From: an uncultured Gammaproteobacteria bacterium
GTDB lineage: Bacteria; Patescibacteriota; Patescibacteriia; Magasanikbacterales; JBBTQS01
Reading direction: 5' to 3'
DNA: 64,000 nt
Assembly (NCBI GenBank): GCA_965230935.1
Contig: OZ246400.1
Location: forward strand, 438,359 to 502,358
The notes under the pieces were generated by a model. The model made no database searches. It was not told the DNA's origin and saw only the letters and a program-made list of their open reading frames with translations. Every line of letters begins with the position of its first letter. Position 1 is the stretch's first letter. Shown here piece by piece: positions 22,381 to 40,845 of the stretch. The translations under genes were made by a program, and so were the position numbers.

Positions 22381-22953
22381 ATGGGAACTCTTGCCTGGAT
22401 TATTCTGGCAGTTGTCGTGCTCATTATCCTTTGGATCATTGGCGCATACAACAGCTTGATTCGACTTAAAAATCGCACAGACGAAGCATGGTCTGACATC
22501 GACGTGCAACTCAAACGTCGCTATGATCTGATTCCTAACCTGATTGAGGCAGTAAAGGGCGCAACCAAGCACGAAGCGCAAACACTTCAAAAAGTTACCG
22601 AAGCTCGTACTGCGGCTATGAGCGCACATGATGCTAAAGACGCATCGCTTGAAGACAAGCTCAAAGCAGAAAACATGTTGTCTTCAGCGCTCAAATCAAT
22701 TTTTGCACTTGCAGAAAACTACCCAGATCTCAAAGCAAACCAAAACTTTTTGCAACTGCAAGACGAACTTTCTGACACCGAGAATAAAATCCAAGCATCA
22801 CGCCGATTTTATAATGGAAACGTCCGTGACTTTAATACCAAAATCGAAACCTTCCCGAGCAATATGATTGCTGGCATGTTCGGCTTCAAAATTCGTGAAT
22901 TCTTTGAAGTTGCTGATGCTAAAGAACGTGAAAACGTAAAAGTCTCATTCTAA
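22381..22953 (+). CDS. LemA family protein
   Basis: N-terminal TM then IGAYNSLIRLKNRTDEAWSDIDVQLKRRYDLIPNL typical LemA; 190 aa. Confidence 0.75.
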   Translation: MGTLAWIILAVVVLIILWIIGAYNSLIRLKNRTDEAWSDIDVQLKRRYDLIPNLIEAVKGATKHEAQTLQKVTEARTAAMSAHDAKDASLEDKLKAENMLSSALKSIFALAENYPDLKANQNFLQLQDELSDTENKIQASRRFYNGNVRDFNTKIETFPSNMIAGMFGFKIREFFEVADAKERENVKVSF

Positions 22954-22965: not shown

Positions 22966-23862
22966 ATGTACGATCACATTGCGGTAAATAAACGCAAAAC
23001 CCGTATTTTAATTGCCATGTTTGTGGTGGTGGTACTTATGATTGGTGCTGCTGCCGGTATGGTGCAAGGTATGGATCCAGTTGCCACAATTGGTATTGCA
23101 GCAGCGTTTTCGATCGTCATGGCACTCGTTGGCTACTTTAAAGGCGACAAAGTGGCGCTTGCCAGCTCTCGCGCACGCAAAATCACCAAAGCGGACAATC
23201 CATATGTATATCGCATGGTTGAAAACCTTTGCATTACCGCCGGAATCAAAACCATTCCTGCGCTCTACATTATTAACGATCCGGCCATTAACGCGTTTGC
23301 CACTGGTCGCGACCCGGAGCACTCCTCAATTGCCGTGACAACCGGTGCGATTGAAAAACTAGAAAACGAAGAGTTAGAAGGGGTACTTGCTCATGAGTTG
23401 TCCCATGTACAAAACTACGACATCAGAATCATGACCATTGTCATTGTGTTGGTGGGCATGATCTCACTTATTGCCGACCTCTTTTTGCGCGGCATGATTT
23501 TTGGTGGTCGCGGACGAAGCAGTGACAGTCGCGGTGGCGGCATTCTGGCAGTCGTCGGCATTGTACTTATTGTACTCTCCCCAATCATCGCCAAACTGAT
23601 TCAAATGGCAGTCTCACGTAAACGGGAGTACTTAGCTGACGCAAGTGGATCACTGCTCACGCGGTATCCAGAAGGTTTGGCGCGGGCGCTTGAGAAAATC
23701 AAAGCACATAATCAACCGATGCGAGCAGCAAATCATGCTACGGCACACCTCTTTTTAGAATCCCCTTTTCGTCGCTCGCGAGGTGGTAAAGTCAAAACAT
23801 CCTGGTTTGATACGCACCCACCAATTGACGATCGTATTGCCAAACTCCGTAGCATGGCGTAA
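22966..23862 (+). CDS. htpX: Zinc metalloprotease HtpX (M48)
   Basis: HELSHV (HExxH), 4 TM topology; 298 aa. Confidence 0.8.
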   Translation: MYDHIAVNKRKTRILIAMFVVVVLMIGAAAGMVQGMDPVATIGIAAAFSIVMALVGYFKGDKVALASSRARKITKADNPYVYRMVENLCITAGIKTIPALYIINDPAINAFATGRDPEHSSIAVTTGAIEKLENEELEGVLAHELSHVQNYDIRIMTIVIVLVGMISLIADLFLRGMIFGGRGRSSDSRGGGILAVVGIVLIVLSPIIAKLIQMAVSRKREYLADASGSLLTRYPEGLARALEKIKAHNQPMRAANHATAHLFLESPFRRSRGGKVKTSWFDTHPPIDDRIAKLRSMA

Positions 23863-23874: not shown

Positions 23875-26352
23875 ATGGATTTAATTGATCGCATGAGTTC
23901 ACATCTTAAGGCATCGCTGAAACACGCGATTGTCTTAGCGACTCGCCAAGGATATTCAATTGTCTACCCTGAACATCTTTTACTTGGCCTACTCTCCCAA
24001 CGTGGATCAGTAGCCACAGAACTTTTGCGTAAGTATCAGTGCAACAAACGGGCACTCACCCAATACGCACTACGCCATCGCAAACACAAAAACCTGAAGC
24101 CCATTCCAGAACTTTCAAAAGAGTCGATTCAAAGTGTGGAGCGAAGCGTGATGATTGGTGCGCAATACGGCCACAATGCAATTGGTACTGAGCATGTGCT
24201 CCTCGCCATGATTGAAAGCAACACCAAAAGCATCCAACGAGCCATTGCTGCAACTAAGATAGAGCAACCACAAGAGCTTGCGGCCTATTTGCGCGTCATT
24301 CTTAAAAGCACAAGTAAGTTTCAGGAAATGCGCGGAGCGCTTGAACAACAACAAGATGGTAGTTCATCTTCGGAAAGTTCCCATACTCCAGCAGAACTTT
24401 CTGCACTTACCCACACCCAACCACACAGTAAAGTCCAGTTGCACAATTTTGTGCGAAACCTTACTGATCCTGAAGTCCAAAAAGCCATTGATCCGGTAAT
24501 TGGTCGAGAGGCAGAGATTGCGCGCTTGATTCATATTCTGTGCCGCAAAACCAAAAATAATCCTTTGCTCCTTGGCGACCCTGGTGTTGGAAAAACTGCA
24601 ATTGTTGAAGGGCTTGCCAAACGAATTGTGCATGGTGATGTGCCCCACCCACTTCGCAACAAGAAAATTCTTGCGTTAGATATGGGGCTGTTGATTGCCG
24701 GAACCATGTACCGCGGTGAGTTTGAATCACGACTCAAAGCTATTATTGATCAAATCAAACGCGATCCCAATACTATTGTTTTTATTGATGAAGTACACAT
24801 GATTGTTGGGGCCGGCGCAACTTCAGGATCACTTGACGCTGCAAACCTGCTCAAACCTGCTTTGGCTCGTGGCGAGCTCCGTTGTATTGGAGCAACCACC
24901 TATCCTGAATACAAAAAACACATTGAGCATGACAGTGCGCTTGACCGCCGGTTTGCGAAAATCATGGTTGAAGAGCCGACCATGGAGAAAACGCGCGCTA
25001 TTCTTGACGGCCTTAAACCAACATATGAACAGTACCATAACGTAACCATCAGTGATGACGCGCTTCGCGCAGCAATTGAAAGTGCAAAACGGTATCTCCC
25101 AGAATATCATTTTCCAGATAAAGCAATTGATCTATTGGATGAAGCTGCAGCAGCATTTCGTGCCTCAGCACCGCAACACCCCCTTGATGCTAAAATCATA
25201 CAAACTGAAGAGGCGCTACGTGCAATTGTCAGTGAAAAACACCAAGCAGTTCTTGCCGAGGACTTTGAGCGTGCCCTACGCGCAAAAGAGCATCAGCAAG
25301 CACTTGAGAGAACCCGTGAGCAACTGATCAATCGCCGAGAAAAACGTGGCCAAAGTAAGCACCAAATCACTGCTACTAACATTGCCCACGTGATCGCTCG
25401 GCGTATTGGCGCACCGGTGTCCTCAATTACCTTTACCGGTGAACATCGACTTACTGCTGTCACGGATCACATCAATTCGCGCATCGTTGGCCAATCACGT
25501 GCCAAAACTCACATCCATAATACCCTCACCAAAGGGCTTCTTGATCTACACACGCGCAAACGTCCGATGGCATCACTCCTCTTTGCCGGACCAAGTGGAA
25601 CTGGTAAAACCCATAGCGCTCATGTGATTGCCCAAGCATTGTATGGTGAACAAAACAATTGTGTGGTGATCAATATGGCAGACTTTAAAGAACCGCATGC
25701 TGTAGCTAAATTAATCGGCTCCCCTGCTGGATATGTGGGATATAAAGATGCCACCACCATTGCAGATACGATCAAACGCCAACCATTTAGTGTCTTACTT
25801 TTTGACGAGGTCGACAAAGCACATACTGACATGCGCAATATCTTACTGCAGATGCTCGACACTGGCGTGCTTACTGATGCGAGCGGCCGCGCAATTGATG
25901 TAACCAACAACACCGTCATTATGACCACCACTGCTGGGAGTACGCATCTTGCTGGTGGGAACATTGGATTTGGTTCTCCTGATACAAAAAATACAAACGC
26001 GCGGCTTCGGCGCACCCTTGAAGAACGCTTTGGAAAAGAATTTTGCAATCGTGTTGATACGCTGGTGCTGTTTGACTCACTTTCCCAGACCGACCTCGAA
26101 CACATTGCGAAACGAGAGCTCACCCAATATCTGAAAAAAATTACAAAACGAGGAGTTGATTTGCGTATTGACGACTCAATCGCAAAATGGATCGCTCGCA
26201 CTGCCAAAGACTCGCCACAAATGGGTAGAACAGTGTATACTATTATCGAGACAAAGATCCTTCCAGTGATCACATCGCATGTGATTGCAGGGAATGCAAG
26301 CGCGCCACATATTCTTCGTCGCGTTGGTAACCAGATCAAGCTCTCAGCATAA
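23875..26352 (+). CDS. clpC: Clp/Hsp100 AAA+ ATPase, ClpC-type (Clp_N repeats, two AAA modules, UVR-like linker)
   Basis: GDPGVGKTAIVEGLA (D1 Walker A), GPSGTGKTHSAHVIAQAL (D2 Walker A), EDFERALRAKEHQ UVR-like; 825 aa. Confidence 0.7.
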   Translation: MDLIDRMSSHLKASLKHAIVLATRQGYSIVYPEHLLLGLLSQRGSVATELLRKYQCNKRALTQYALRHRKHKNLKPIPELSKESIQSVERSVMIGAQYGHNAIGTEHVLLAMIESNTKSIQRAIAATKIEQPQELAAYLRVILKSTSKFQEMRGALEQQQDGSSSSESSHTPAELSALTHTQPHSKVQLHNFVRNLTDPEVQKAIDPVIGREAEIARLIHILCRKTKNNPLLLGDPGVGKTAIVEGLAKRIVHGDVPHPLRNKKILALDMGLLIAGTMYRGEFESRLKAIIDQIKRDPNTIVFIDEVHMIVGAGATSGSLDAANLLKPALARGELRCIGATTYPEYKKHIEHDSALDRRFAKIMVEEPTMEKTRAILDGLKPTYEQYHNVTISDDALRAAIESAKRYLPEYHFPDKAIDLLDEAAAAFRASAPQHPLDAKIIQTEEALRAIVSEKHQAVLAEDFERALRAKEHQQALERTREQLINRREKRGQSKHQITATNIAHVIARRIGAPVSSITFTGEHRLTAVTDHINSRIVGQSRAKTHIHNTLTKGLLDLHTRKRPMASLLFAGPSGTGKTHSAHVIAQALYGEQNNCVVINMADFKEPHAVAKLIGSPAGYVGYKDATTIADTIKRQPFSVLLFDEVDKAHTDMRNILLQMLDTGVLTDASGRAIDVTNNTVIMTTTAGSTHLAGGNIGFGSPDTKNTNARLRRTLEERFGKEFCNRVDTLVLFDSLSQTDLEHIAKRELTQYLKKITKRGVDLRIDDSIAKWIARTAKDSPQMGRTVYTIIETKILPVITSHVIAGNASAPHILRRVGNQIKLSA

Positions 26353-26372: not shown

Positions 26373-27611
26373 ATGGACAAACGAAAATTGTTTGGCCTTA
26401 TTGGACTTATCGTTGGTTCAATAGGTATTGCTATTGCGATTTATTTCGTATTTTTTAAATCAGACACGCCCGAACCTACTCCAATCACTGATGAAACCGG
26501 AACCATCACTGGGTTTATCACTGCTGATGGTGAGCGCGTCCCGGTTGGCCCTGATGGCGAACCAATTATCACTCCGGACGCATTTCCTGAATCAGAAGCA
26601 CGGCCGCCATCGGCAGTTGCGGACGGTGGCCCAACAGCAACCCAAATCCTTGTTCCATCAGATGCACGCGATCTTAAATTCAACCCAAACGCAAAATCCC
26701 TACAATACTACGATCCCATCACCGGACTATTCCACCGCATTGGTGCTGATGGCGAAATTACCACACTCAACGACACGCCACTGGTAAATGCACGGGATGT
26801 TGCCTGGGCCAATGGAACTGACAAAGCAATCGTTGAATTTCCTGATGGGGCAAATGTGTTTTATGATTTTAAAACCCAGGAACAACGCACCTTACCAAGT
26901 CACTGGACTGAGTTTGAATTTTCTCCACAAGACGAAAGTATTGCCGCGAAAAAACTTGGCTTCTCCCCGGAGAACCGTCATTTGATTATTGCGAACCCGG
27001 ACGGGACGGCAGAACGCGCGGTTACCTTTCTTGGAAAGAACGCTCACAAACTTGATGTATCATGGTCACCGAATGATCAAGTGATCGGGTTTGCCCACAC
27101 CGGACGCAAACTTGGTCTTGGTCGCGAAGAAGTACTGCTGGTTGGTAAACATAACGAAAACTTTCCATCCTTAATTGTTGAAGGGCTTAAATTTCAACCA
27201 AAATGGTCTACCAAAGGTGATGCATTACTCTACAGCTCAATTAGTAGCAATAACGATCTGCAACCAGAATTATGGTTGGTCAATGCAGATACTGACAGTG
27301 TTGGCGAACAACGCATTCCACTTGGACTCACCACTTGGGCAGATAAATGTACCTTTAGTAATAATGAGAACATCTACTGTGCCGTACCAAATCCAGATCG
27401 ACTCCCATTTGGCATTGGATTTCGTCCAGACATGGCCAACAATACCGACGATACGATTTACCAAATCAACTTGAATACCGGAACAACCTCCATCGTCGGC
27501 AAACCGGATAAAAGTGTAACTGTTGATAGTTTGGTTGTTTCTGATGACAACTCGTTGCTGTACTTTACCGAGAAAAATACCGGCACCTTACACCAAATGA
27601 TCCTCAAGTAA
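26373..27611 (+). CDS. TM-anchored PD40/TolB-like beta-propeller repeat protein (paralog 1)
   Basis: N-terminal TM; repeated xxSWSPNDQ / FSPQDESIA / PDG motifs typical of PD40 blades; 412 aa. Confidence 0.5.
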   Translation: MDKRKLFGLIGLIVGSIGIAIAIYFVFFKSDTPEPTPITDETGTITGFITADGERVPVGPDGEPIITPDAFPESEARPPSAVADGGPTATQILVPSDARDLKFNPNAKSLQYYDPITGLFHRIGADGEITTLNDTPLVNARDVAWANGTDKAIVEFPDGANVFYDFKTQEQRTLPSHWTEFEFSPQDESIAAKKLGFSPENRHLIIANPDGTAERAVTFLGKNAHKLDVSWSPNDQVIGFAHTGRKLGLGREEVLLVGKHNENFPSLIVEGLKFQPKWSTKGDALLYSSISSNNDLQPELWLVNADTDSVGEQRIPLGLTTWADKCTFSNNENIYCAVPNPDRLPFGIGFRPDMANNTDDTIYQINLNTGTTSIVGKPDKSVTVDSLVVSDDNSLLYFTEKNTGTLHQMILK

Positions 27612-27612
27612 T

Positions 27613-28257
27613 ATGCAACGGCAAGAGACAGTTATTCTGTTGGTGGGAGGACTTGCAATCATTGCTATTTTCGCTTGGGGACTCTTGGCGCTCTATCAAC
27701 CAACGCCAGAAAAAACTCCGGTCACCTATCGCAGTGGCGCACCCGAAGTCTTTGCGGACGATCCATTCTTAGGGCCGGCTGATGCCAAAACAACAGTCGT
27801 TATGTACAGTGATGTTGGCTGCCTTGCTTGTGCGCGACAACTCGATATTATCGAAGATCTTCACAAGAGACTACCAGAGGTAAAGTTCGTCTGGAAAGAT
27901 CTCCCTGATCGGGGCATCATTATCCCAGAATATATGCAAGCCCATGTTGCAGCGCGATGTGCCCATGGGTATGGTAAGTTTTGGGAATACGCCCGTGAAT
28001 TGTTGATCAATCGCAATACCTTGATTGAATTTGATCATATTGGATTTGCCGGCACACTTGGGATTCCTTCAGTGCCATTTAGCCAATGTATGGGATCAGA
28101 CGCTGCAGCGCAAAGTGTAACCGCGAGTCTGCAACAAGGACGAGAGTTTGGCGTCTTCTCTACTCCGTATCTATTTGTAAACGAACGTCGCATTGATGGG
28201 GTTATTCCAATCAATCGACTCTTCCAAATTATTTTTGAAGCGAATGCGCGCTCATAA
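27613..28257 (+). CDS. DsbA/BdbD-like thiol:disulfide oxidoreductase, membrane-anchored
   Basis: TTVVMYSDVGCLACARQ (CxxC in thioredoxin context), N-terminal TM; 214 aa. Confidence 0.65.
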   Translation: MQRQETVILLVGGLAIIAIFAWGLLALYQPTPEKTPVTYRSGAPEVFADDPFLGPADAKTTVVMYSDVGCLACARQLDIIEDLHKRLPEVKFVWKDLPDRGIIIPEYMQAHVAARCAHGYGKFWEYARELLINRNTLIEFDHIGFAGTLGIPSVPFSQCMGSDAAAQSVTASLQQGREFGVFSTPYLFVNERRIDGVIPINRLFQIIFEANARS

Positions 28258-28261
28258 GAAT

Positions 28262-29863
28262 ATGAAAAGTAACAGTCTTTCAGCTCGAACATACTCAATC
28301 ACCCCACTTGGCATAGTGCTCCTGGCAAGCACGGTACTGAGCCTAGCGATTGTACCTTCACACGCCCAAGCACAATCAGATGGTGAACTCACCAAAACCG
28401 GAAAACAAACCGAGGCGATTACCAAACAAAAACAAGAGCTCAAACCAATACAGCCAAACCTAAACATCGACATTCCGGATCTACGCTTTACTGATCCTAG
28501 CACCTTGAGCGCCAAGATCAAAAACGGCGCCAAAGGATTTAGTATCCCGTTTCTTGGTGAATATATTTCTGGAATCTACACTTATGGCGTGGGGATCATT
28601 TCGATTTTAGGAATGATCGCACTAGTCGTTGGTGGAATTATGTACGCTGCCGCTGCTGGAAATAGCGAGCGCGTTGAGTTGGCAAAAAGTATCATTACTA
28701 ATTCATTTATTGGTATTGGTATTGCTGCCGGGAGCTACTTGTTACTGTATATTATTGATCCCAATCTCGTGGAGCTTAAAAACGTGGGAATTACTGTCGT
28801 TGAAAAAGAAGAGTTTGATTATGATACCGAAGAAATGGAACAACTTTCAGCTGATAGTCCGGTAACTGCTGCGGATAAAGTTGAAAACCCTACCGGGACA
28901 GACCATGGTTCTGCTGCATCTGCAGGTACCACTACCGGCACCACTGAATTTGTAACAAAAATAGTTCCATATTATGGAAAAACAGTTGAAGCGTGGACAA
29001 GTAGGTCAAAAAGCAAGACCATGACTGTCAATATCCCTAGCGCAATACCAGAATTTCTCCCAGCTGATCCTAGTGATTCTGCTTTACCAGCAGGATTTAC
29101 CAGTGTGAATCAGTTTAACAATAAAATGGCCATGATTGGGTACACCTTTGGTGATACGTCACTGAGTGCCAAAACATTTTGTAATCTCAAGGCAGCGAAT
29201 AAATCAACAAATTTTTCTGCAAGCGCATTTGCTGATTCCAAATATTTTGGCGCACTTGATTGCGCTGGAAACTACGGACCACGAAGTTCGATCAACTATC
29301 TTGTGCTTCACAATGCCGGTGCCAGTGCTTTCACCACAACCAAAAACTGGCGCCAAGGTAGTATTGGAAGATACAAAAAGAAAAAAGATGGAACCTGGTA
29401 TTATTGGAGAAAGCCGATCGCATCACACTTTTTTATCGAGGCAAGTGGCAAAACCTACCAACTTGCAGATACCAAACTCCACCTTCGGCACTGTTGTGGG
29501 AAAAATAAAACCTCTGTAGGTGTTGACTTACAACCCAACATTTACAAAGTAAAAGGTGGACCCAAAGGAATCAAAGGCAAAAAATTCAACTGGTACAAGC
29601 AAAGTGCCTACAACAAAATCAAAAAAATCGCTGACCTGGTTGGGGTTCCAATGACTAATGACACCATTATTTCTCATTGTGGTGAGTCTCCTGGACGACG
29701 CGTTGATCCAAATTATTTCTCCTGGGAAGCCATTGGCCTAAACACGAATCACGCAAAACATAAATGTACTTGGAGCGCACAAAAAGTGAACATCGCCAAA
29801 CAAGTCAAAGCAGAAGTTGGTGATGCCAAGTTTGAAGAAATGTGTCCTAAGTGTCCAATCTAA
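28262..29863 (+). CDS. Secreted peptidoglycan hydrolase: signal peptide, central 2-helix membrane-hairpin module, Ser/Thr-rich linker, C-terminal N-acetylmuramoyl-L-alanine amidase (Amidase_2/PGRP-like) domain
   Basis: signal MKSNSLSARTYSITPLGIVLLASTVLSLAIVPSHAQA; hairpin LNIDIPDLRFT...AAAGN...IIDP; amidase motifs LVLHNAG, SHFFIEASGKTYQLAD, SHCGESPGRRVDP. Confidence 0.6.
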   Translation: MKSNSLSARTYSITPLGIVLLASTVLSLAIVPSHAQAQSDGELTKTGKQTEAITKQKQELKPIQPNLNIDIPDLRFTDPSTLSAKIKNGAKGFSIPFLGEYISGIYTYGVGIISILGMIALVVGGIMYAAAAGNSERVELAKSIITNSFIGIGIAAGSYLLLYIIDPNLVELKNVGITVVEKEEFDYDTEEMEQLSADSPVTAADKVENPTGTDHGSAASAGTTTGTTEFVTKIVPYYGKTVEAWTSRSKSKTMTVNIPSAIPEFLPADPSDSALPAGFTSVNQFNNKMAMIGYTFGDTSLSAKTFCNLKAANKSTNFSASAFADSKYFGALDCAGNYGPRSSINYLVLHNAGASAFTTTKNWRQGSIGRYKKKKDGTWYYWRKPIASHFFIEASGKTYQLADTKLHLRHCCGKNKTSVGVDLQPNIYKVKGGPKGIKGKKFNWYKQSAYNKIKKIADLVGVPMTNDTIISHCGESPGRRVDPNYFSWEAIGLNTNHAKHKCTWSAQKVNIAKQVKAEVGDAKFEEMCPKCPI

Positions 29864-32538
29864 CTATGTTTCTTCGTTCCTTTTTGATAATCAGTAGCAT
29901 CTTTATCTCGGGCATGGGATTATTTGTGTTTCCTACCACCACTTCTGCTGATCCAGCAACTCCTAAAATAACCAGTCAAGCACAGCATGACGGCTCAACT
30001 GTCTATAACTATACGTCGACCTGCGACAATGCCGATGCACTTATGACCAGTGCAAAAAACTCCGGTGGGGCGAAAAATTGGCTCAAGGCAAATTCAAAAT
30101 TCAAAGACGAGTACATCACCTCCAAACGTGGGATTATTGTTTCAGACGGTGTTTCCAACATTGATCGAATTTACATCTGGTGGCATGGCATTGATGGCTG
30201 GAACAACAGCCCGGAAAAAATGTGTAATGGTACAGTCTCATTGTGTAAGCATGCCAAAACCATTAAAGACGCCGGAGTTAATGCGGCAATCTTGACTCCC
30301 ATTACCGTCAATGCTGGATCAGGTTCTCAAGTACTCAAGCAACCGGAGATCGATTGTTTTATCAATGAGGCGCGAGAAATTTTGAAAAATGAAATCAACG
30401 TGACCGGTGGTGATAGCGCACCAATTCTCGTAAGCGGACATAGTGGTGGTGGTGAGTTTGTTATGGGGTACTCAAAACTGTACCCTACTTCGCAGGCGCT
30501 CTTTTTTGATGCCTGCTATGGCAATACCTGCAAAAAGACAGCGGCACTATCCAATGTATCTCACGCTTCCTTCTATGCCCGACCGGGAGGAAAAGAAGCA
30601 AAAGGTTCAAAAAAAGGATATGACGAAGCACCGGACAAAACCAAATTTGCTACGCTGAAAAGTGGAGTGAGTCACTATGGTGTGGTGAAATATTGTTTTG
30701 CCGAACATGTGGTAGGTGGGCTTTGTGAAAACAGGGTGAAAGAGGAAAAAATGTTAGGGGTCGATCCATCTGGCAATCCTGTTGGATCAGGGCCTGCATC
30801 TGATCCAGGGACACCACCGCCGCCCACCGAAGGGTGTGTCTGTACCGGTGAAGCATCGATTGCACCGGCACACGTTGCATTGCTCGCAGTCGCAGGGAAA
30901 GAAGTGGAGATAGAAAAAGGATGTACTGACGAGTTGCACGGCAACTACTCCAACGGGGCTTGTTCAAGTATCAACTTTCAAATATCAGCACTGAGCAACA
31001 CCCAATGTGCGCAAAAAAGTGCTGCCATTGCTCCAACAGTGATCTCGAAATACATTGGTGCCGATGCTTCTCAAGCACTTCAAGATGCCACAACAATCTC
31101 AACATCATGCACCTGGTCACCAGTACCAGGTGGAGCAGGGAGTGCAGGTGCAGGCACTTCAGGAGCAAGCGGCACCGGCTCAGGTGGGGCAACACTTGTC
31201 GAAGCTTCTGAACCAGCAAAACCACTCGCAATCGCACCTCAGCTAAACATTGATATTCCCGGTCTTGAGTTCACTGAAGTGAAAGGTCTGGCCGGGGGAA
31301 GCACAGTGAATGTTCCGTTTATTGGTCAATATGTTGTTGGAATATATGAATATGCAATTGGGGTAATCACGATCATTGCATTGGTTGTTGTTATTATTGC
31401 CGGTGCCCGATATACCCTGGCCGCAGGAAATGCCGCAGCTGTCAAGCAAGCCAAAGAAATGGTTGGTGGTGCAGTAGTTGGTGTGCTTATTGCATTTGGT
31501 TCATACAGTATTTTAGCGATTATTGATCCGGGAACACTTCGGTATGATCCGCTCGGTGTTCAAGTGGTCGAGCGTATTGAGATCGAATTTCCTGACGATG
31601 ATTTGCCAGAGGAGTATGCAGCTCTTGCAGAGAAAGATGTACAAGAAAAAATACAAGCAGTGGCACTCGGTGAGATACCTCCACAAAAAGGAACCTTTGC
31701 ACAAAAAAAATTCTATGACAAATGTGGCGATCCGGCCACGATGATTGCAATTGCCGATAAATTTTTGGCGCAACCACTCTGCCAAGGGCCATGTCACTGC
31801 GCACCAACCATTCAACGGTGGCTTATTCAAAGTGGATGTGATCCTGCTGCACTTAAGGGTGCCGGACTGGTACGAAAAATGAAAGGACTATTGTATGCCA
31901 TGACTCATCCTGACGGAAGTCCAATGTATGTTGAGCGTTCAGGAGATGATACCGCGAATCTCAGCCCAGGAGATATCTTGTTTATTAAAAATGGCCATGT
32001 CGGCATGTACTATGGAGATGGATATACTGTTGACTCCGGTACAGGTCGGCAAAATCAAAAAACCTGTTTTTCAGATGGGTGCCCACGAAAAATTTGGGAT
32101 TCATACGGCACATCCAAATGCACCTCTTGCGGATTGATCAAAAAACATACTCCAGCAGATTGGTATTGGGCACGGGGTCAACTACAAAAAGATCTTACCA
32201 GTGGAAATGTCACCAATAACATCTGTTACAAAATCTGGCACGGTACTGCTACCACAGCCGAACGAAAAGTTATCGGGGAAAAAGTACAACAGAAAGCCGA
32301 CAAAACCTCATACGCGAAAACAAAGGCAAAATATCAAGCACTTGCCACAACACTCCTAACCGGTGGCACACTTACCCAAGCAGATAAAAAAACCGCACTC
32401 AAGTTTGCACCGAGCTATTGTACCAGTTGTGTCGGCAACCAATGTATCGCAAAAAACAAATGGAAAGGCCGACCAAAGGGAAGCAAAAAATATGGCTATG
32501 ACACCTATGCAGACTACCAACCACCATCAGGAACGTAA
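29851..32538 (+). CDS. Secreted multi-domain hydrolase: N-terminal alpha/beta-hydrolase (esterase/lipase-like GHSGGG) domain, Gly/Ala/Ser linker, same 2-helix membrane-hairpin module, C-terminal CHAP/NlpC-P60-like cysteine peptidase
   Basis: signal peptide; WWHGIDGW + VSGHSGGG; hairpin LNIDIPGLEFT...LAAGN...IIDP (about 50% identical to neighbour); CHCAPTIQ ... GDILFIKNGHVGMYYGDG (Cys/His CHAP-like). Confidence 0.55.
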   Translation: MSNLTMFLRSFLIISSIFISGMGLFVFPTTTSADPATPKITSQAQHDGSTVYNYTSTCDNADALMTSAKNSGGAKNWLKANSKFKDEYITSKRGIIVSDGVSNIDRIYIWWHGIDGWNNSPEKMCNGTVSLCKHAKTIKDAGVNAAILTPITVNAGSGSQVLKQPEIDCFINEAREILKNEINVTGGDSAPILVSGHSGGGEFVMGYSKLYPTSQALFFDACYGNTCKKTAALSNVSHASFYARPGGKEAKGSKKGYDEAPDKTKFATLKSGVSHYGVVKYCFAEHVVGGLCENRVKEEKMLGVDPSGNPVGSGPASDPGTPPPPTEGCVCTGEASIAPAHVALLAVAGKEVEIEKGCTDELHGNYSNGACSSINFQISALSNTQCAQKSAAIAPTVISKYIGADASQALQDATTISTSCTWSPVPGGAGSAGAGTSGASGTGSGGATLVEASEPAKPLAIAPQLNIDIPGLEFTEVKGLAGGSTVNVPFIGQYVVGIYEYAIGVITIIALVVVIIAGARYTLAAGNAAAVKQAKEMVGGAVVGVLIAFGSYSILAIIDPGTLRYDPLGVQVVERIEIEFPDDDLPEEYAALAEKDVQEKIQAVALGEIPPQKGTFAQKKFYDKCGDPATMIAIADKFLAQPLCQGPCHCAPTIQRWLIQSGCDPAALKGAGLVRKMKGLLYAMTHPDGSPMYVERSGDDTANLSPGDILFIKNGHVGMYYGDGYTVDSGTGRQNQKTCFSDGCPRKIWDSYGTSKCTSCGLIKKHTPADWYWARGQLQKDLTSGNVTNNICYKIWHGTATTAERKVIGEKVQQKADKTSYAKTKAKYQALATTLLTGGTLTQADKKTALKFAPSYCTSCVGNQCIAKNKWKGRPKGSKKYGYDTYADYQPPSGT

Positions 32539-33586
32539 TTGGTTTAGCTCCATCGTAGCGTTTGTGGTGGTAATACTCTTTGGACTTTTTATTTTGTATT
32601 TTTACCTAAACATTACCCCACCAGGACCAACGACCCATCAACCTATCGCATTGGTTTCAAGCACAATCAACAGCGTAAAGTTTAATCCGGTTCATCGCAC
32701 CATCACCTATCGTGATACTGATGGTTTTCACCTGCTTGATATTCAACAAAAGAAGATGGGAGAATTGCCAATGCCTTTTTCGATCGACCCTGATGCAGAA
32801 TACATTTTTTCTCCAAACTACCACTTTGCTGCAGTAGTTGATAGTTCTCGTGATCTGTATCTGCGCGATCTGACCAATGGAGAACAGATGTGGTTGGGTA
32901 GCCAACCGACCAGTATTGACTGGGCAGTTGATGAATCCACATTACTTTATGCGCTTTTGGAAGAATCAGAAGATGATGAGGACACCACCGCCATAGAGTA
33001 TGTCCATGTGTTTGATACTGAAACACAAGAGGATACATTACTGCGAGAACTGCTTGTACGTGATGATGAATCAGTATCACTTGGCTACTCAGAGCGACCT
33101 AATCATATTATCTATTCTTCTGATGATGGAGATTTTGGGTATAGCTATTTCGAAGTCAATCTGAACGAACCCGATGATGAAGACGTCTATCTTGATGATC
33201 TCAACATCTATTCACTCAGTTACTCACCATCAAATCGTTATCTTATTTACCTTCCATTTACATTCGAACTCGATGAATCATACCGCATCAAAGATTTTAA
33301 AACCGGAGAGGAAAAAGAAGTCCCATTTGAATTTGAAGGGTATGATTGTACGTGGGACACTCGTGAAGAAAACATGTACTGTGTGGATTATTCTGATCCA
33401 AATAACCCTTTACTCCCGATTCAGCACTATAACTTACCGGCCGGCACATCTACGACAATCGCTCACCTGAATGCTGAAGATTACACTACCAATGGAGTAA
33501 TGATCAACGATGATCAGGAGCTCTTTTTCATGAATCTCAACGACAACAGACTCTACGGTATGCAACTCTCAGGTGTGGTAAGATAG
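32492..33586 (+). CDS. TM-anchored PD40-like beta-propeller repeat protein (paralog 2)
   Basis: same architecture as 26373 gene (TM then SIDPDAEYIFSPNYHF / SLSYSPSNRYLIY blades); start chosen at ATG 32492 with AAGGGAAG SD (listed 32363 start overlaps upstream gene by 175 nt). Confidence 0.45.
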   Translation: MAMTPMQTTNHHQERNWFSSIVAFVVVILFGLFILYFYLNITPPGPTTHQPIALVSSTINSVKFNPVHRTITYRDTDGFHLLDIQQKKMGELPMPFSIDPDAEYIFSPNYHFAAVVDSSRDLYLRDLTNGEQMWLGSQPTSIDWAVDESTLLYALLEESEDDEDTTAIEYVHVFDTETQEDTLLRELLVRDDESVSLGYSERPNHIIYSSDDGDFGYSYFEVNLNEPDDEDVYLDDLNIYSLSYSPSNRYLIYLPFTFELDESYRIKDFKTGEEKEVPFEFEGYDCTWDTREENMYCVDYSDPNNPLLPIQHYNLPAGTSTTIAHLNAEDYTTNGVMINDDQELFFMNLNDNRLYGMQLSGVVR

Positions 33587-33610: not shown

Positions 33611-34933
33611 ATGCCAAAACCAAAACTCATATTTTCGTGCTCATATTGCGACGCACAATTTCCTAAATGGATTGGGCGCTGCGAACAATGCGGTAAGTGG
33701 GGCACCATCAATAGTACACCCACTCCCCCGCCAGCATCGAGCCCGTTACCAACCACAGCTACTGTAGCTGCTAAAAAACCAACCAGCCTTACTACGGTGA
33801 CAGACACACATGTCGAACGTATCAGCAGCGGACATACGCAAATTGATGAAGTGCTTGGTGGTGGTTTTGTCGCTGGATCATTAACGCTGCTGGGTGGCGA
33901 TCCGGGAGTTGGTAAATCAACCTTAGCTCTAGCAATCAGTGCGCATATACCCAACTCACTCTATATTTCCGCAGAAGAATCACTTGCACAAATCAGTCTG
34001 CGGGCAAAACGACTCGGAGTCACTACATTATCACTCCTCCACGAGACACAGTGTGAGACACTTGTCGCAACCATTGCCAAAGAACAACCACCATTGGCGA
34101 TTATTGATTCTATTCAAACAATTTCGTCACGTGCTGCCAGTGGCGAGGTTGGGAGTGTTTCGCAAATTAAAGCATGCACTGCGCAAATTCTTGAGATAGC
34201 AAAGCGTACCGGTGTTGCCGTACTCCTGATTGGTCATGTGACCAAAGATGGTGCCGTAGCAGGACCAAAAACATTAGAACATTTGGTTGATACCGTACTG
34301 TACCTCGAAGGTGATGAGCAGCGTGATGTTCGTATTTTGCGCAGTACCAAACACCGATTCGGAGCAACTGACACCATTGGTATTTTTGCCATGCAAGAAA
34401 ACGGTTTACAGCCGATACTCAATCCTACCGCTGCATTTTTACCAGATCAACGAGCACACACTCCAGGTGTTGTGTTAAGTGTCACCATGGATGGTAAACA
34501 ACCACTGGTAATTGAGGTACAAGCACTTACTACCAAAACCACATTTGGGTACCCCCAACGACGAGTCAGTGGCTGCGATCTCAATCGATTGCAAGTACTC
34601 TTGGCTGTACTCATTGAACGAGCCAAGCTTCCGCTTGCTCAATATGACGTGCACGTCAATATTGTTGGTGGAATCACGGTAAAAGAACCAGCGGTTGATC
34701 TAGCGATTGCACTTGCGATTATCAGCAGCCTCAAAAATATCGCGCTACCACGTGACACCGTAGCATTTGGAGAAGTTGGATTGGGTGGCGAAATTCGACC
34801 AATACGATATCTGGAAAAACGAATTGCAGAATCAACAAAAATGGGATTTGGAACTATCTTTTCTCCTCAACACTCCCTCCCTGCAAAAACTACTCAGCTG
34901 CTCACCATTACGGACGCATTGAATCATCTCTAA
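33611..34933 (+). CDS. radA: DNA repair protein RadA (Sms)
   Basis: N-terminal zinc finger CSYCDAQFPKWIGRCEQCGKW, GDPGVGKST Walker A, KNRFG, Lon-like C-domain; 440 aa. Confidence 0.9.
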   Translation: MPKPKLIFSCSYCDAQFPKWIGRCEQCGKWGTINSTPTPPPASSPLPTTATVAAKKPTSLTTVTDTHVERISSGHTQIDEVLGGGFVAGSLTLLGGDPGVGKSTLALAISAHIPNSLYISAEESLAQISLRAKRLGVTTLSLLHETQCETLVATIAKEQPPLAIIDSIQTISSRAASGEVGSVSQIKACTAQILEIAKRTGVAVLLIGHVTKDGAVAGPKTLEHLVDTVLYLEGDEQRDVRILRSTKHRFGATDTIGIFAMQENGLQPILNPTAAFLPDQRAHTPGVVLSVTMDGKQPLVIEVQALTTKTTFGYPQRRVSGCDLNRLQVLLAVLIERAKLPLAQYDVHVNIVGGITVKEPAVDLAIALAIISSLKNIALPRDTVAFGEVGLGGEIRPIRYLEKRIAESTKMGFGTIFSPQHSLPAKTTQLLTITDALNHL

Positions 34934-34994
34934 AATCAAAACGACCCGACTGTTTGTCGAGCCATCCTGGTTGTGTTGTGTAATGTAGTGCGGC

Positions 34995-35294
34995 TTACCG
35001 CGTGCGGGCGCGGGTGCCGGACTTGATTCCCTGACCAGCGTGAAGCGTGTCGGTCAGGTTGTACCCGGCGAGCTGTGGGAACCGATCGGTGTACTGCTTG
35101 GCCACCAGAGTACGGCGCTCCAGTGGAGCCCGACGCACCTGCGAGCGTGCCAGCAGAGCCGCGGCCTTGACTCGGCCGTTGTCGATCTCGCGCCTGATGG
35201 CGCCACCCATGGCAATCACGGTCTGTGTATTGCCACCGACACGCTGCTCACGGGTGAGCCGCTCGTCTACCGGTAGTGGGATACGTGCTCCCAT
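34995..35294 (-). CDS. High-GC small basic protein B (100 aa) of a two-gene overlapping cassette
   Basis: MGARIPLPVDERLTREQRVGG...; ATG overlaps upstream stop (TGATG); downstream CA-rich tract ACACAACACAACCAGG + hairpin + T-run. Confidence 0.4.
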   Translation of the reverse strand: MGARIPLPVDERLTREQRVGGNTQTVIAMGGAIRREIDNGRVKAAALLARSQVRRAPLERRTLVAKQYTDRFPQLAGYNLTDTLHAGQGIKSGTRARTR

Positions 35295-35551
35295 CAGATC
35301 TTCCCCCTCATGCGTCGACGCCCAGCGCGACCGGCCTGTACTGGTGCCGGCGGCGCCATGCGCTGCAGGTGCCGCTCCAGCCGATCGGCCTCGCGATCGT
35401 TGCCGCACGCCCGAAGCCGCTCGATCACCGCGTTCCCCGAGACACGCTCGGTACGCAGCGACATCGCCGAAGGGAGCGATCGTGGCGCCTCCCCATGTGC
35501 CGCGCCTCCAGCAACTGGACCGCGGCTATGCCCAATGGATTCTTCACCCAT
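35294..35551 (-). CDS. High-GC small protein A (85 aa) of two-gene cassette; possible TA/regulatory pair (unassigned)
   Basis: ATG 35551 with GAGGAG SD 9 nt upstream; MGEESIGHSRGPVAGG...RLERHLQRM; GC-rich. Confidence 0.4.
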   Translation of the reverse strand: MGEESIGHSRGPVAGGAAHGEAPRSLPSAMSLRTERVSGNAVIERLRACGNDREADRLERHLQRMAPPAPVQAGRAGRRRMRGKI

Positions 35552-35671: not shown

Positions 35672-37744
35672 TCACTCCAAATGAATATTAACGTGGATAT
35701 TGCCAAAGTGTGTTGTACCCATGCGCCCTAAATCCCAGCCAGAAGCATGCATTTTTTGAGCAATCTCTTGAGTAAGTTCAAGTAATACCATATCTGAAAG
35801 CCGCGCAATGGTAAATTGCAAAAAACCACTTTGCGCCTTGCCATATACCTCCCCAGGACCACGCGTTGCTAAATCATGTTGAGCAAGCGCAAATCCATCC
35901 AAGGTTTGTTCAAAAAAACTCAATCGCTCAAGTGCGGCAGCCTGCGCAGCATCTGCATCTACAAAACAATACGATTGATGTTCTCCTCTGCCAACACGTC
36001 CGCGAAACTGATGGAGTTGCGCTAAACCAAACCGATGCGCGTCCTCAATAACCATTACGGTTGCATTTGGAATATCAACTCCCACTTCAATAACTGAGGT
36101 TGAAACTAACATGTCTGTTTCCCCAGAAGCAAACGTGTCCATGATTTGTTGCTTCTGATCACTTTTCATTTTCCCATGCAACATTACCACACGATACTGG
36201 GCAAATTCTTGCTGGAGCTTTTCAAATTCAGCAGTTACTGATTTTACCTCTAGTGAATCTGATTCATCAATCAGCGGACAAATCACAAATGCTTGTCGTC
36301 CGGTATTAAGTTGTTTGCGAATAAACTGATATGCTTTGGTACGATTCTTTTGGGTAAGTATGCGAGTAATAATTGGTTTGCGTCCAGCTGGCAATGTGCC
36401 AATAACTGACACTTCAAGATCACCGTACAGCAAAAGAGCAAAAGATCGTGGGATTGGCGTAGCAGTTAATGACAAAAAGTGAGGTGTTACGCCTAAACTT
36501 TTCTGCAGGAGTGCTTGCCGTTGATTCACCCCAAATCGATGCTGCTCATCAACAATGGTTAACGCCACCTCTGGCATCACGACGTCTGGTTGGAGCACGG
36601 CGTGGGTTCCGATCACAATATCGACTTTACCTTGTGCAATAGCTTTTTTTAGTGATGCCTTGGTACGTTTATGATCTGTTGTGCCGTCGTAGCAATATGC
36701 ATGCGCACTACTTAAGAAAGCGACGGAGACCGGAAATGAGGCAAACAATTTTTGAAACGAGACATAGTGTTGTCGTGCAAGCACTTCGGTTGGCGCCATT
36801 ACCATGACCCGCTTTTCATTGGTAATGGCATGCCAACTTGCCAGCGCTGCAACAACGGTTTTCCCAGAACCAACATCACCTTGGACCAGTCGCCGCATGG
36901 GAGCGGACTCCTGCATTTGCTGGATGATTTTCCAGGCTGTTTTTTTCTGATCCGCGGTAAGAGTAAAAGGAAGTGCATCAACAAATGCCTTAATCCTTGA
37001 CTCATCAAATGCAAGTGGAATGGCTTTTGCCGATTGATAGGTCTGTGCATTGATAATTGACGAAAAGAGAATGGGAAACAACTCTTCAAAACCAAGACGT
37101 CGCCGCGCCGCTTCAAGTTCTGATTGATCCTTTGGAAAATGAATCGTACGCAGCGCGTCTTGTAATGAGATAAGTTTGTGCTGAGTACGAATGTGCCCAG
37201 GCAACCAATCATCAATTTGGTCGATTGCTGATAATGATTGTGTTACTAAATATCGGAGGTGTTTAACAGTCACCCCAGCAGTGGTTGAATAAACCGGAAC
37301 CAGACGGCCAGTATGAGCACCTGTTTTTCCAGGCTGCATCTTTTCGTATTGGGGAGCGCTAAAGAGTAGACCGATAGAATCTTCTCTCACCTTTCCGGCA
37401 ACGGCAATCGCATCTCCTTGAGTAATACTGCGGCTTAAGTACGGCTGGTTAAACCAAAAGATTCGTATACTTCCGGTATCATCCTCAAGTAATGCCTCGG
37501 TGACACTCTTACGAGATCGCCAGCCGCGTCGATTTTGGATCATCATCACCTTACCAGTGACGGTCACCACTTGGTCCTGTTTCAGAGTATCGATCGAAAC
37601 CGTGTTTTGAAAATCATCGTAGCGATACGGTAAATAATAGATAAGGTCTTCAACCGTATGCAAACCCAAATATCCCAAGCGTTTGACCAAGGTTTTACCT
37701 ACAGTTTTAAGTTCTCCAACCGGAGTATCAAGACGAATACTCAT
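35672..37744 (-). CDS. recG: ATP-dependent DNA helicase RecG
   Basis: wedge/OB N-domain, GDVGSGKT Walker A, DEQH box, TATPIPR, QLHQFRGRVGRG; 690 aa. Confidence 0.9.
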   Translation of the reverse strand: MSIRLDTPVGELKTVGKTLVKRLGYLGLHTVEDLIYYLPYRYDDFQNTVSIDTLKQDQVVTVTGKVMMIQNRRGWRSRKSVTEALLEDDTGSIRIFWFNQPYLSRSITQGDAIAVAGKVREDSIGLLFSAPQYEKMQPGKTGAHTGRLVPVYSTTAGVTVKHLRYLVTQSLSAIDQIDDWLPGHIRTQHKLISLQDALRTIHFPKDQSELEAARRRLGFEELFPILFSSIINAQTYQSAKAIPLAFDESRIKAFVDALPFTLTADQKKTAWKIIQQMQESAPMRRLVQGDVGSGKTVVAALASWHAITNEKRVMVMAPTEVLARQHYVSFQKLFASFPVSVAFLSSAHAYCYDGTTDHKRTKASLKKAIAQGKVDIVIGTHAVLQPDVVMPEVALTIVDEQHRFGVNQRQALLQKSLGVTPHFLSLTATPIPRSFALLLYGDLEVSVIGTLPAGRKPIITRILTQKNRTKAYQFIRKQLNTGRQAFVICPLIDESDSLEVKSVTAEFEKLQQEFAQYRVVMLHGKMKSDQKQQIMDTFASGETDMLVSTSVIEVGVDIPNATVMVIEDAHRFGLAQLHQFRGRVGRGEHQSYCFVDADAAQAAALERLSFFEQTLDGFALAQHDLATRGPGEVYGKAQSGFLQFTIARLSDMVLLELTQEIAQKMHASGWDLGRMGTTHFGNIHVNIHLE

Positions 37745-40221: not shown

Positions 40222-40845
40222 TTATCCACGCGCCAGCGCCACATACCAAATCTGCTTTGTCCCAGCCCCAACAAGGGCTTGGGCGCATGCCTGGATTGTA
40301 GCTCCGGTAGTGATGACATCATCCACAAGCACAACTTTTTCTGGAGCGATCCCTCGACACACAAACGCCTCATGCACATTACCCAACCGCGCGGATCGAG
40401 AAAGTTGCGCTTGAGCTTTTGTGTGTCGAGTCCGAAACAACACATCGGTCCTTACCTCCAATTGAGTTACCTCTCCCACTGCATGTGCTACAATTTCTGC
40501 TTGATTAAAATCACGCACCACATATCGTTTTGCATGCAATGGAACCGGCACTACCGCAGGACGCAAGGCATTAATCTCTTGCGTCACCACTTCTCCCAAT
40601 GCATGACCAAGTCGACGTGCAATAGATTCAATAAACCCGAACTTAATCTCATGAATCGCCCGGCGCACTATCGGGTGTGCATGTGTAGCATACGTCAACA
40701 TACGCGCATCAACTTGCACATCTCGCACCTGTACCACACACGCATTACAAATACCACTTCCCTCTTGGTTACACCCAACACAAAAAAGTGGAAAAAGTGA
40801 ATCCAAAACTATATTCTTGAATTGTGCGATGATTCCTAAGCGCAC
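40222..40845 (-). CDS. comF: ComF family protein (ComFC-type phosphoribosyltransferase, competence)
   Basis: N-terminal CxxC...CxxC zinc finger (CVGCNQEGSGICNAC), PRTase motif VLVDDVITTGAT; start overlaps upstream gene stop by 1 nt. Confidence 0.7.
   Translation of the reverse strand: MRLGIIAQFKNIVLDSLFPLFCVGCNQEGSGICNACVVQVRDVQVDARMLTYATHAHPIVRRAIHEIKFGFIESIARRLGHALGEVVTQEINALRPAVVPVPLHAKRYVVRDFNQAEIVAHAVGEVTQLEVRTDVLFRTRHTKAQAQLSRSARLGNVHEAFVCRGIAPEKVVLVDDVITTGATIQACAQALVGAGTKQIWYVALARG

Follow-up and report, generated by a model that had tools for sequence, protein, structure and literature searches.

Patescibacteria account for a large part of bacterial diversity and are attached to other microbes. 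One study reports 1135 assemblies in which VirB2-like pilins are encoded near virB4 and describes arrays of 2-11 of them; VirB1 is missing from most of the genomes that have such pilins (PMC12102498). In Candidatus Southlakia epibionticum, the type IV secretion system (T4SS) and the pilins are essential (PMC10633639), a coupling protein and a relaxase are not recognisable (PMC10633639, PMC12857230), and the function of the patescibacterial T4SS has been described as unknown (PMC11665869, PMC10633639). The wall hydrolases PrgK (pCF10), TraG (pIP501), CwlT (ICEBs1) and VirB1 are membrane-tethered multi-domain enzymes in which glycosidase, CHAP or NlpC/P60, and LytM/M23 domains are combined and which open the donor's own wall so that the secretion machine can pass (background in part from PMC12102498). 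Here we compare with these systems a cluster of five genes, O1 to O5, found in a 64-kb window of contig OZ246400.1, from an uncultured patescibacterium; the window is the whole stretch of DNA that was analysed, 64,000 nucleotides in length.

A preliminary description had presented the cluster as five tightly packed same-strand genes in the order propeller, DsbA-like protein, amidase hydrolase, esterase/CHAP hydrolase and propeller. This layout holds, with gaps of 1, 4 and 2 nt followed by a 41-nt overlap between O4 and O5. That description did not include the module common to O3 and O4: a VirB2-like pilin hairpin, carried by each hydrolase, is the organising feature of the cluster. The genes and their domains are listed below (TM, transmembrane).

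26373-27611, +: O1, TM helix, linker and 7-bladed beta-propeller; conserved core protein of this neighbourhood
27613-28257, +: O2, predicted membrane-anchored DsbA/MdbA/ScsC-like thiol-disulfide oxidoreductase
28262-29863, +: O3, 533 aa, signal peptide, pilin module, Cys-rich linker and Amidase_2 domain
28427-28846, +: pilin module of O3 (aa 56-195), by homology to the O4 module and the module HMM
29285-29710, +: Amidase_2 domain of O3 (N-acetylmuramoyl-L-alanine amidase, aa 342-483), by Pfam
29866-32538, +: O4, 890 aa, esterase-like N-domain, pilin module and NlpC/P60-like C-domain
29941-30870, +: N-domain of O4 (aa ~26-335), putative serine esterase/lipase, by motifs
31216-31605, +: pilin module of O4 (aa 451-580), by homology to the O3 module and the module HMM
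31618-32535, +: C-domain of O4 (aa ~585-890), papain-like, NlpC/P60-type, by motifs and homologues
32498-33586, +: O5, 362 aa, TM helix and very acidic beta-propeller

The pilin module of the two hydrolases

The modules of O3 and O4 are about 130 aa long and share 34% identity (E 3e-29). Each begins with the external motif PxLNIDIPxLxF, continues with two hydrophobic helices joined by AAGNxxxVxxAK, and ends with I-D-P-x-L; in O3, the order can be followed as P-x-L-N-I-D-I-P-x-L-x-F, TM1, a short loop with a conserved Lys, TM2, and I-D-P-x-L-V. Hydrophobic segments lie at aa 11-36, 102-134 and 144-167 of O3 and at aa 1-25, 489-522 and 532-558 of O4, a pattern that suggests a Sec signal peptide plus a two-helix membrane hairpin in both proteins.

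The family to which the module belongs was examined in two sets of proteins. The first, the syntenic set, consists of the 69 proteins that fill the DsbA-to-RadA interval in related genomes; 60 of them match T4SS_pilin (PF18895; best 4.3e-12) and 5 match TrbC/VirB2 (PF04956). The second was drawn from 1.84 billion cluster representatives, all scanned by HMMER with a two-sequence module profile; 20,858 of them matched at E <= 1e-3, and 5,179 remained at the stricter threshold of E <= 1e-10. The 150 top-scoring matches are all 221-891 aa long with the module internal, and in a library sample of 105 of these 150, T4SS_pilin was found in 89 (best 9.8e-28) and TrbC in 2. O3 itself scores 22.3 bits against T4SS_pilin (E 1.4e-4; cut-off 26.6) and 7e-4 against the NCBIfam model "pilin-like conjugal transfer protein", below the curated cut-off. 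An HMM built from 66 modules recognises only O3 and O4 within the window (1e-43 and 4e-43). At the family level, the assignment of these modules to the VirB2/TrbC "T4SS_pilin" type thus appears solid. Some library representatives (P0125, P0126, P0129-P0131, P0134, P0137 and P0254) contain 3-6 module matches each, that is, tandem hairpins in one polypeptide.

The features shared with the described VirB2/TrbC pilins (PF18895; Ca. Southlakia epibionticum, TM7x arrays) are the signal peptide, the two-helix hairpin with its short loop, the HMM match at the level of the family, and the arrangement in tandem, sequence-divergent genes, of which there are 1-4 here; in ABY1 genomes, these pilins also lie near virB4 with comF, recG and radA. 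In contrast to pilins of ~100 aa (mature form roughly 70-130 aa), which are little more than the hairpin, O3 and O4 measure 533 and 890 aa and bear catalytic domains N- and/or C-terminal of the hairpin. They further differ by conserved external motifs, PxLxIxIPxLxF and INPxLV, and by their position 6.6-15.6 kb away from the T4SS locus, whose genes are encoded on the other strand. The kinds of protein involved are already known (patescibacterial VirB2-like pilins, T4SS-associated hydrolases and DsbA-type oxidoreductases). A search of the full-text literature, limited to open-access papers and so not proof of absence, returned no description of pilin-hydrolase fusions, and in the papers retrieved VirB2 homologues are regarded as small pilins; the pilin-enzyme fusion architecture is widespread and apparently undescribed.

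Enzyme domains fused to the hairpin

The Amidase_2 domain of O3 scores 32.5 bits against a curated cut-off of 26 (E about 1.2e-7 to 1.3e-7), which upholds the earlier reading of this gene as an amidase hydrolase; the match to the AmpD model of NCBIfam is 1.8e-4. The H..PGRRVDP motif of O3 was aligned to the Zn site of AmpDh2 (PDB E 0.11), where the Zn-ligand H and D of "SHCGESPGRRVDP" in O3 align with "GHSDIAPGRKVDP" in AmpDh2, and the first amidase His ("LVLH") was assigned by inspection only. Compared with AmpDh2 and AmpD, O3 keeps the Zn-site motif H...PGRxVDP and a Pfam score above the cut-off, whereas the overall similarity is very low, as the PDB E value of 0.11 reflects, and O3 has in addition a Cys-rich insertion and the pilin hairpin.

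O4 is built of a signal peptide, the N-domain, a Cys-rich linker rich in Gly and Ser, the pilin module, the C-domain and a Cys-rich tail. When full-length O4 was used in a word-indexed homologue search, it recovered nothing but itself, probably because low-complexity and TM words dominated the search, and its homologues were taken from the syntenic loci (numbered with the prefix L). The N-domain has no Pfam or PDB sequence match of its own. It contains the motifs WHG, GHSGG, FFDAC and SHYG in alpha/beta-hydrolase order, which are kept in the L078 and L044 homologues, and the L078 homologue matches LCAT at 1.1e-3, below the cut-off; at the level of motifs, the domain is a putative serine esterase/lipase. 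The C-domain reaches 13.6 bits against NlpC/P60 (E 0.067; cut-off 23), and its GPCHC...GHVG pattern is kept in four homologues (L004, L005, L017 and L044). The L020 homologue, aligned to aa 456-731 of O4, matches NlpC/P60 above the cut-off (32.9 bits, 6.5e-8); it is uncertain how GPCHC in O4 lines up with the canonical DCSG motif of that homologue. Homologues and motifs support a divergent NlpC/P60-like, papain-like C-domain. The label "esterase/CHAP" given earlier to this gene can be kept in a modified form: O4 itself has no significant Pfam match, and motifs and homologues point to an alpha/beta-hydrolase N-domain and an NlpC/P60-like C-domain.

In the wider family, the fused domains are mostly enzymes of the same kind. 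In the syntenic set (n=69), we found VanY in 8 proteins, Peptidase_M15_4 in 7, Amidase_2 in 6, M23 in 6, SLT in 5, GDSL lipase in 3, NlpC/P60 in 3, and phage lysozyme, C39_2 and Exo_endo_phos in 1 each. The library sample (n=105) gave Amidase_2 in 13, VanY in 13, M15 in 12, SLT in 11, C39_2 in 7, NlpC/P60 in 5, 3D in 4, M23 in 2, and GH18, CHAP and glucosaminidase in 1 each. Judged by these domain matches, the fused domains of both sets are overwhelmingly peptidoglycan hydrolases. Fused heads are not limited to wall hydrolases, as can be seen in the L044 fusion (12046-14487), which joins an N-terminal Exo_endo_phos nuclease/phosphatase domain (1.5e-14) to an O4-like C-domain; a T4SS_pilin Pfam match is not listed for it, and BLAST and the module HMM place its module at aa ~424-553.

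The enzyme domains at the cassette position are exchanged rapidly among related genomes, even among the four closest ones. The cassette of the window combines Amidase_2 (O3) with esterase plus NlpC-like domains (O4); that of L004 has M15_4 and an NlpC-like domain, that of L005 has Amidase_2 and an NlpC-like protein without the esterase, and that of L006 has M15_4 and an unknown domain.

SLT, M23 and NlpC/P60 domains, all of which occur in the pilin-fusion family, are also those of PrgK, TraG, CwlT and VirB1, and the membrane tethering and multi-domain build are likewise shared. The differences lie in the anchor, which is a single N-terminal TM segment in PrgK, TraG and CwlT and a pilin hairpin here; in the gene position, inside the T4SS operon there and near the operon, outside it, for O3 and O4; and in the domains combined, SLT plus CHAP there versus Amidase_2 and esterase plus NlpC/P60-like in the window.

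The DsbA-like protein and cysteine content

The presence of a DsbA-like gene, as previously described, was confirmed by a Thioredoxin_4 match of O2 (6.1e-13; 49.7 bits, cut-off 23.2) and by its CLAC motif, which forms the active site C70-L-A-C73 (aa 70-73). The TP of "FSTPYLF" in the cis-Pro loop aligns with the TP of ScsC, the PDB matches are DsbA and ScsC proteins (8e-7 to 6e-5), and CxxC is kept in 49 of 50 syntenic O2 orthologues. A TM-like segment at aa 3-29 points to an external location of the domain. No DsbB/VKOR partner was found among the scanned proteins of the window.

All 39 Cys outside the DsbA-like protein lie in predicted external parts of the five products. O3 has 8, all C-terminal to the hairpin, and O4 has 27, and there are none within the hairpins. 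The median fusion protein has 16 Cys (3.0%), compared with 0.4-0.7% in the neighbouring ClpC and RecG proteins. As a speculation, the 27 Cys of O4 would fit 13 disulfides and one free catalytic thiol.

Actinobacterial MdbA is needed for pilus assembly, and TrbB and TraF of the F plasmid are thioredoxin-fold proteins linked to a T4SS. O2 resembles MdbA, BdbD and DsbA in its predicted TM anchor and in a thioredoxin fold that has CxxC and a cis-Pro loop, and it is encoded beside Cys-rich exported proteins, its putative clients; unlike MdbA and the F-type systems, it is linked to pilin-hydrolase fusions and not to sortase pili or F-pili.

The two propellers

O1 consists of a TM helix (aa 4-31), a disordered Pro-rich linker (aa ~40-73) and a propeller (aa ~85-412). 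O1 has no Pfam match of its own, the PD40 HMM gave no match to O1 or O5 at E <= 0.1, and the TolB model reached 15.8 bits against a cut-off of 343; the propeller question was therefore settled by structure prediction and homologues. The AF2 model of O1 (36 sequences, pLDDT 89.8) is an all-beta domain of ~28 strands in 7 blades, and a Foldseek search with it found 7-bladed WD40/WDR5-type propellers at 2.6e-11. O1 has 168 homologues, many of them named Ca. Uhrbacteria, and a precomputed PF07676 (PD40) match is present on about one third of the homologues listed. The pair Cys326/Cys336 is invariant in the family alignment, and 68 of 80 orthologues contain two Cys and no more.

O5 is strongly acidic, with 64 D+E against 19 K+R. 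Its homologues are one protein in an index of 5.8 billion, plus the copies in loci L004 and L005; O5 orthologues match beta-propeller Pfams at 7e-8, and one of them matches PD40 at E 0.2. The AF2 model, made from two sequences, is of low confidence (pLDDT 63) and consists of a TM helix followed by repeated four-strand units, which retrieve the same PDB propellers as O1 (Foldseek, 6e-9). O1 and O5 are related at E 0.003 by BLASTP and at E 1.3e-4 by profile-profile comparison (hhalign, probability 54%), in a collinear alignment of 293 columns in which both Cys are aligned. It is plausible but not established that O5 is a remote paralogue of O1.

The earlier statement that both end proteins are TM-anchored propellers is thus supported, firmly for O1 and more weakly for O5. 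The further wording "paralogous PD40 propellers" fares less well: PD40 repeats are not detectable by HMM search in either protein, an outcome that the preliminary description had itself named as refuting, and are found on a part of the listed O1 homologues; the paralogy is borne out in part by the BLASTP and profile-profile comparisons given above. The bracketing of the cluster by two propellers is true of the window, whereas O5 is present in 2 of the 65 informative related loci (both among those with O1, DsbA and pilin proteins), so the two-propeller bracket is lineage-specific; outside the window, a second propeller was seen in the three closest relatives alone. A role of O5 as an immunity protein or inhibitor, suggested by its acidity against the basic tails of the enzymes, was considered and dropped, as it is without evidence and O5 is missing from nearly all loci.

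The propeller of TolB has six blades. O1 shares with TolB/PD40 proteins the extracytoplasmic beta-propeller and the PD40 matches in many of its homologues; it differs by its N-terminal TM anchor, which takes the place of the TolB N-domain, and by its 7 predicted blades, and the organism here is a monoderm without Tol-Pal.

The conserved unit in related genomes

We collected 80 genome loci anchored on O1, 65 of which were informative, with at least 2.5 kb downstream of O1. O1 is followed by DsbA and pilin protein(s) in 38 of the 65, and in 30 of these then by RadA. In 7 loci, O1 is followed by pilin protein(s) and RadA without a detected DsbA, in 4 by DsbA without a detected pilin protein, in 9 by ComF and in 1 by RadA, and in 6 none of these neighbours was detected. 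Upstream of O1 lie LemA, M48 and ClpC, except in 26 other loci, where O1 is divergently adjacent (~100 nt) to a type IV pilus operon of the order PilM, PilN/O-like, PilB and PilC (L015, L027, L031, L039, L041-L043, L046, L048, L051-L053, L055, L058, L063, L064, L068, L070, L075, L079, L081 and others). The position of O1 beside this operon or beside ComF suggests that it is tied to envelope-spanning pilus/DNA-uptake machinery rather than to hydrolases as such.

A second set, anchored on the pilin module, comprises 32 independently sampled metagenome loci, each of at least 8 kb. DsbA occurs in the same string in 22 of the 32, O1 in 11 and RadA in 12, and VirB4 lies within 10 kb in 4. The frequency of DsbA against that of VirB4 makes DsbA and the pilin-fusion genes the most robust partnership, and the T4SS link is lineage-dependent. 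Fourteen of these loci show a second recurrent context, described further below, of which L100 (5274-10864) is the annotated case: its order is DsbA, POR gamma, POR alpha, pilin protein, POR beta and pilin-VanY, then convergent RecJ, the pilin genes being interleaved with those of pyruvate:ferredoxin oxidoreductase (POR) subunits. L096, L099, L135, L137 and L147 share the pattern among the 13 others.

Over ~110 related loci, the conserved unit is O1, DsbA and 1-4 pilin-module proteins with freely swapped enzyme domains. The preliminary description had proposed a co-functional secreted module of wall hydrolases with a folding helper. This general idea agrees with the 39 external Cys and with the association of DsbA with pilin-module genes in both sets; the unit from propeller to propeller does not stand, as O5 is nearly lineage-specific and O1 can also be found beside ComF or the type IV pilus operon with neither DsbA nor hydrolases.

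The gene string and the T4SS locus

The five genes are a segment of a longer same-strand string that runs from LemA, M48 and ClpC to RadA with gaps of at most 24 nt; the gaps flanking the O1-O5 segment measure 20 and 24 nt. Scans for promoter and terminator consensus across the cluster did no better than on shuffled sequence and gave no operon boundaries. The flanking genes are as follows.

22381-22953, +: LemA, by open reading frames and independent gene calls
22966-23862, +: M48/HtpX, by open reading frames and independent gene calls
23875-26352, +: ClpC, by open reading frames and independent gene calls
33611-34933, +: RadA, by Pfam; conserved downstream neighbour (synteny)
35672-37744, -: RecG, by RecG_wedge and helicase Pfams; conserved convergent neighbour (synteny)

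A mobile element or an integrative and conjugative element was considered and rejected, since the cassette keeps the same place among core genes from order to order and neither an integrase nor a relaxase is present in the window. The exact O1 protein also occurs on metagenome contigs of ERR2281800 (PRJEB17505). Named O1 homologues are mostly from Candidatus Uhrbacteria, Magasanikbacteria and Falkowbacteria, lineages that belong to the GTDB class ABY1.

Downstream of the cluster, at 6.6-15.6 kb, lies a type IV secretion locus that was absent from the preliminary description.

40222-49154, -: type IV secretion locus, by Pfam
40222-40845, -: ComF-like gene, part of this locus
between ComF-like and VirB4, -: h227
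41541-43430, -: VirB4 (TraG P-loop 2.1e-27)
between VirB4 and PrgI/VirB3, -: h232
44118-44573, -: PrgI/VirB3 (PrgI 1.8e-7)
between PrgI/VirB3 and VirB6/TrbL-like, -: h569
46302-49154, -: VirB6/TrbL-like, 950 aa (TrbL 7.2e-5)

ABY1 T4SS loci commonly hold comF, recG and radA, and the layout of the window matches this published arrangement (PMC12102498). The order RecG, ComF, h227 and VirB4 follows the cassette in 8 other loci (L014, L016, L025, L074, L084, L087, L089 and L130). The window yielded no gene for a stand-alone pilin, a relaxase or a coupling protein.

Beyond the T4SS locus (52404-60782, - strand), the Cys-rich protein of 2792 aa noted in the preliminary description was found as claimed; it carries a signal peptide and 96 Cys (3.4%), and it matches no Pfam domain. 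Relatives of this protein, at the level of BLAST, are encoded upstream of DsbA-pilin cassettes in L100, L112 and L122. Between it and the T4SS locus lie two GC-rich paralogues, predicted to be lipoproteins or secreted (50623-51531 and 51691-52299), whose common C-terminal half (95% aa identity) corresponds to a 530-bp direct repeat of 97% identity at 51101-51626 and 51866-52392. GC-rich islands of 60-70%, against a background of ~45%, are present at 12500-13400, 18700-19300, 34900-35500, 49200-50100 and 50500-52100. Their open reading frames, among them those for a protein of 349 aa and for TM proteins of 218 and 311 aa, have no Pfam match and may have been acquired horizontally. One island, at 34900-35500, occupies the gap between RadA and RecG, a gap that some relatives, such as L025, lack; an Rfam search of this stretch found nothing. 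Elsewhere in the window, outside the cluster, are a wall-associated 684-aa protein with VanW and PG_binding_4 domains (2320-4374, - strand) and tandem paralogous Na+/Ca2+ exchanger genes (5141-6106 and 6113-7120, - strand), with 67-74% nucleotide identity over parts.

Interpretation of the cluster

The explanation that we favour, tentatively and as one that could quite possibly be right, is that the cluster forms a cassette for exported enzymes that are serviced by DsbA and tethered to the cytoplasmic membrane by hairpins of VirB2/TrbC type, in a conserved envelope/T4SS/competence neighbourhood of ABY1 (Uhrbacteria-like) genomes. According to their sequences, O3 and O4 would be exported by Sec via cleavable signal peptides and would enter the membrane as a hairpin of two helices, whose flanks both face outward and whose Lys-containing loop stays inside. 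Gene adjacency and the distribution of Cys suggest that O2 oxidises the Cys-rich ectodomains of O3 and O4, and likewise the Cys pairs of the propellers. The Amidase_2 and NlpC/P60-like domains would then cut peptidoglycan stem peptides near the membrane, where the esterase-like domain of O4 could possibly cut acyl or lipid esters. The pilin hairpin would position these enzymes beside the VirB3/VirB4/VirB6 machine, and in sister lineages beside the type IV pilus; we therefore propose that the hydrolases may take the wall-opening role that VirB1, PrgK, TraG or CwlT has in other T4SSs. O1, on its flexible linker of ~55 residues, might speculatively serve as a wall-level scaffold or regulator, and O5 would be a recent, lineage-specific acidic offshoot.

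Several observations weigh against this explanation. The T4SS_pilin score of O3 is below the Pfam cut-off and O4 has no match, so the assignment depends on the family, and a PDB sequence search with a 50-sequence module profile did not find a solved pilin; the same search gave chance TM-hairpin matches to a sensory rhodopsin transducer (E > 0.6). The T4SS genes are encoded on the other strand and are separated from the cassette by RadA, RecG, an MFS transporter gene and tRNA genes, and the operon structure of the cluster is read from gene spacing alone. O1 is also found without DsbA or hydrolases, and its role as a scaffold or regulator is a guess. In the 14 of 32 pilin-anchored loci mentioned above, the DsbA-pilin-pilin pattern occurs without O1, RadA or a T4SS gene within 10 kb. 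Finally, fusions in loci without an adjacent DsbA are just as rich in Cys (median 3.9%, against 3.0% with an adjacent DsbA; one-sided p = 0.96); as DsbA is perhaps encoded elsewhere in those genomes, this test of co-variation is uninformative rather than negative.

The main rival explanation, which we consider somewhat unlikely, is that O3 and O4 are housekeeping autolysins, ordinary hydrolases of growth and division in which a pilin-like hairpin was exapted as a plain anchor with no tie to a T4SS, and that the cluster lies among ClpC, RadA and other core genes simply as core genome. It would agree with the location of the cassette inside the housekeeping string from LemA, HtpX and ClpC to RadA, at a chromosomal position fixed across orders, with the very large size of the family (20,858 representatives), and with amidase, endopeptidase and carboxypeptidase activities that meet the own needs of a wall-bearing cell; the second recurrent context, without a T4SS gene within 10 kb (14 loci; POR/RecJ in L100), also favours it. 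It is opposed by the turnover of the domains, which are swapped even in the four closest genomes and occur in 1-4 copies, unusual for essential one-to-one orthologues, and which include lipase and nuclease domains. It is also opposed by the nature of the anchor, which is homologous to T4SS pilins, carries additional conserved external motifs and is not a generic TM segment, and by the nearby VirB4/VirB3/VirB6 locus in this lineage, where the window holds no other pilin candidate. A further reading, that of the preliminary description, is a single five-gene machine in which DsbA and the hydrolases act together with paralogous PD40 propellers at both ends. In its favour are the shared strand, the minimal spacing and the aligned Cys pair of the two TM-anchored end proteins. 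Such a machine is largely contradicted by the synteny data and is very improbable: O5 is present in 2 of 65 loci and a single homologue of it was found among 5.8 billion proteins, at least 15 loci have O1 and none of the other genes, neither propeller matches the PD40 HMM, and the same-strand string runs well past the five genes, from LemA to RadA.

The homology of the module to pilins can also be read as a sign that the enzymes act in trans, as a weapon or feeding tool: VirB4 would extract the hairpin from the membrane, as it does with VirB2, the fusions would then become part of a T4SS pilus by polymerisation, be displayed on one or be set free, and their hydrolase, lipase and nuclease heads would breach the wall and membrane of a host bacterium, domain swapping being an adaptation to host walls. 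Both termini of the pilin face the filament exterior in the structure of the F-pilus, so a terminal fusion may be compatible with a filament, but a globular head of 300-450 residues per subunit is sterically hard to accommodate in a VirB2-type helical filament. The domain repertoire resembles antibacterial effector sets and turns over fast at one locus, an exported Cys-rich protein of 2792 aa adjoins the T4SS locus, and the patescibacterial T4SS and pilin array are essential for epibiotic growth without a relaxase or coupling protein (PMC10633639, PMC12857230); on the other side, no gene for immunity or self-protection stands out, some fusions lie away from T4SS genes, and their release or polymerisation is a supposition. 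We therefore regard this use of the enzymes as unlikely. Its stronger form, in which the fusions are true subunits of a T4SS pilus, or substrates that mimic pilins, and are extracted by VirB4/VirB6 to be mounted on such a pilus or ejected through it, seems quite improbable to us. If true, it would describe an "enzyme-armed" pilus with exchangeable amidase, peptidase, muramidase, lipase and nuclease heads that drill into the host wall, and such a pilus would explain why the T4SS and pilins are essential in epibiotic growth despite the lack of a relaxase and coupling protein.

Significance

These results indicate that a very large subfamily of patescibacterial "pilins" consists of fusions of 200-900 residues to peptidoglycan-cleaving enzymes, represented by at least 20,000 public sequence clusters, usually with a DsbA partner and often near T4SS, type IV pilus and competence genes. 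Counts of "VirB2 pilins" made by HMM take in such enzymes, which is a pitfall for annotation. The fusions may account for the VirB1 that is apparently missing in most genomes with VirB2-like pilins, and they offer a testable hypothesis for how these cells breach a wall, their own or that of a host. The architecture bears directly on the function of the essential patescibacterial T4SS.

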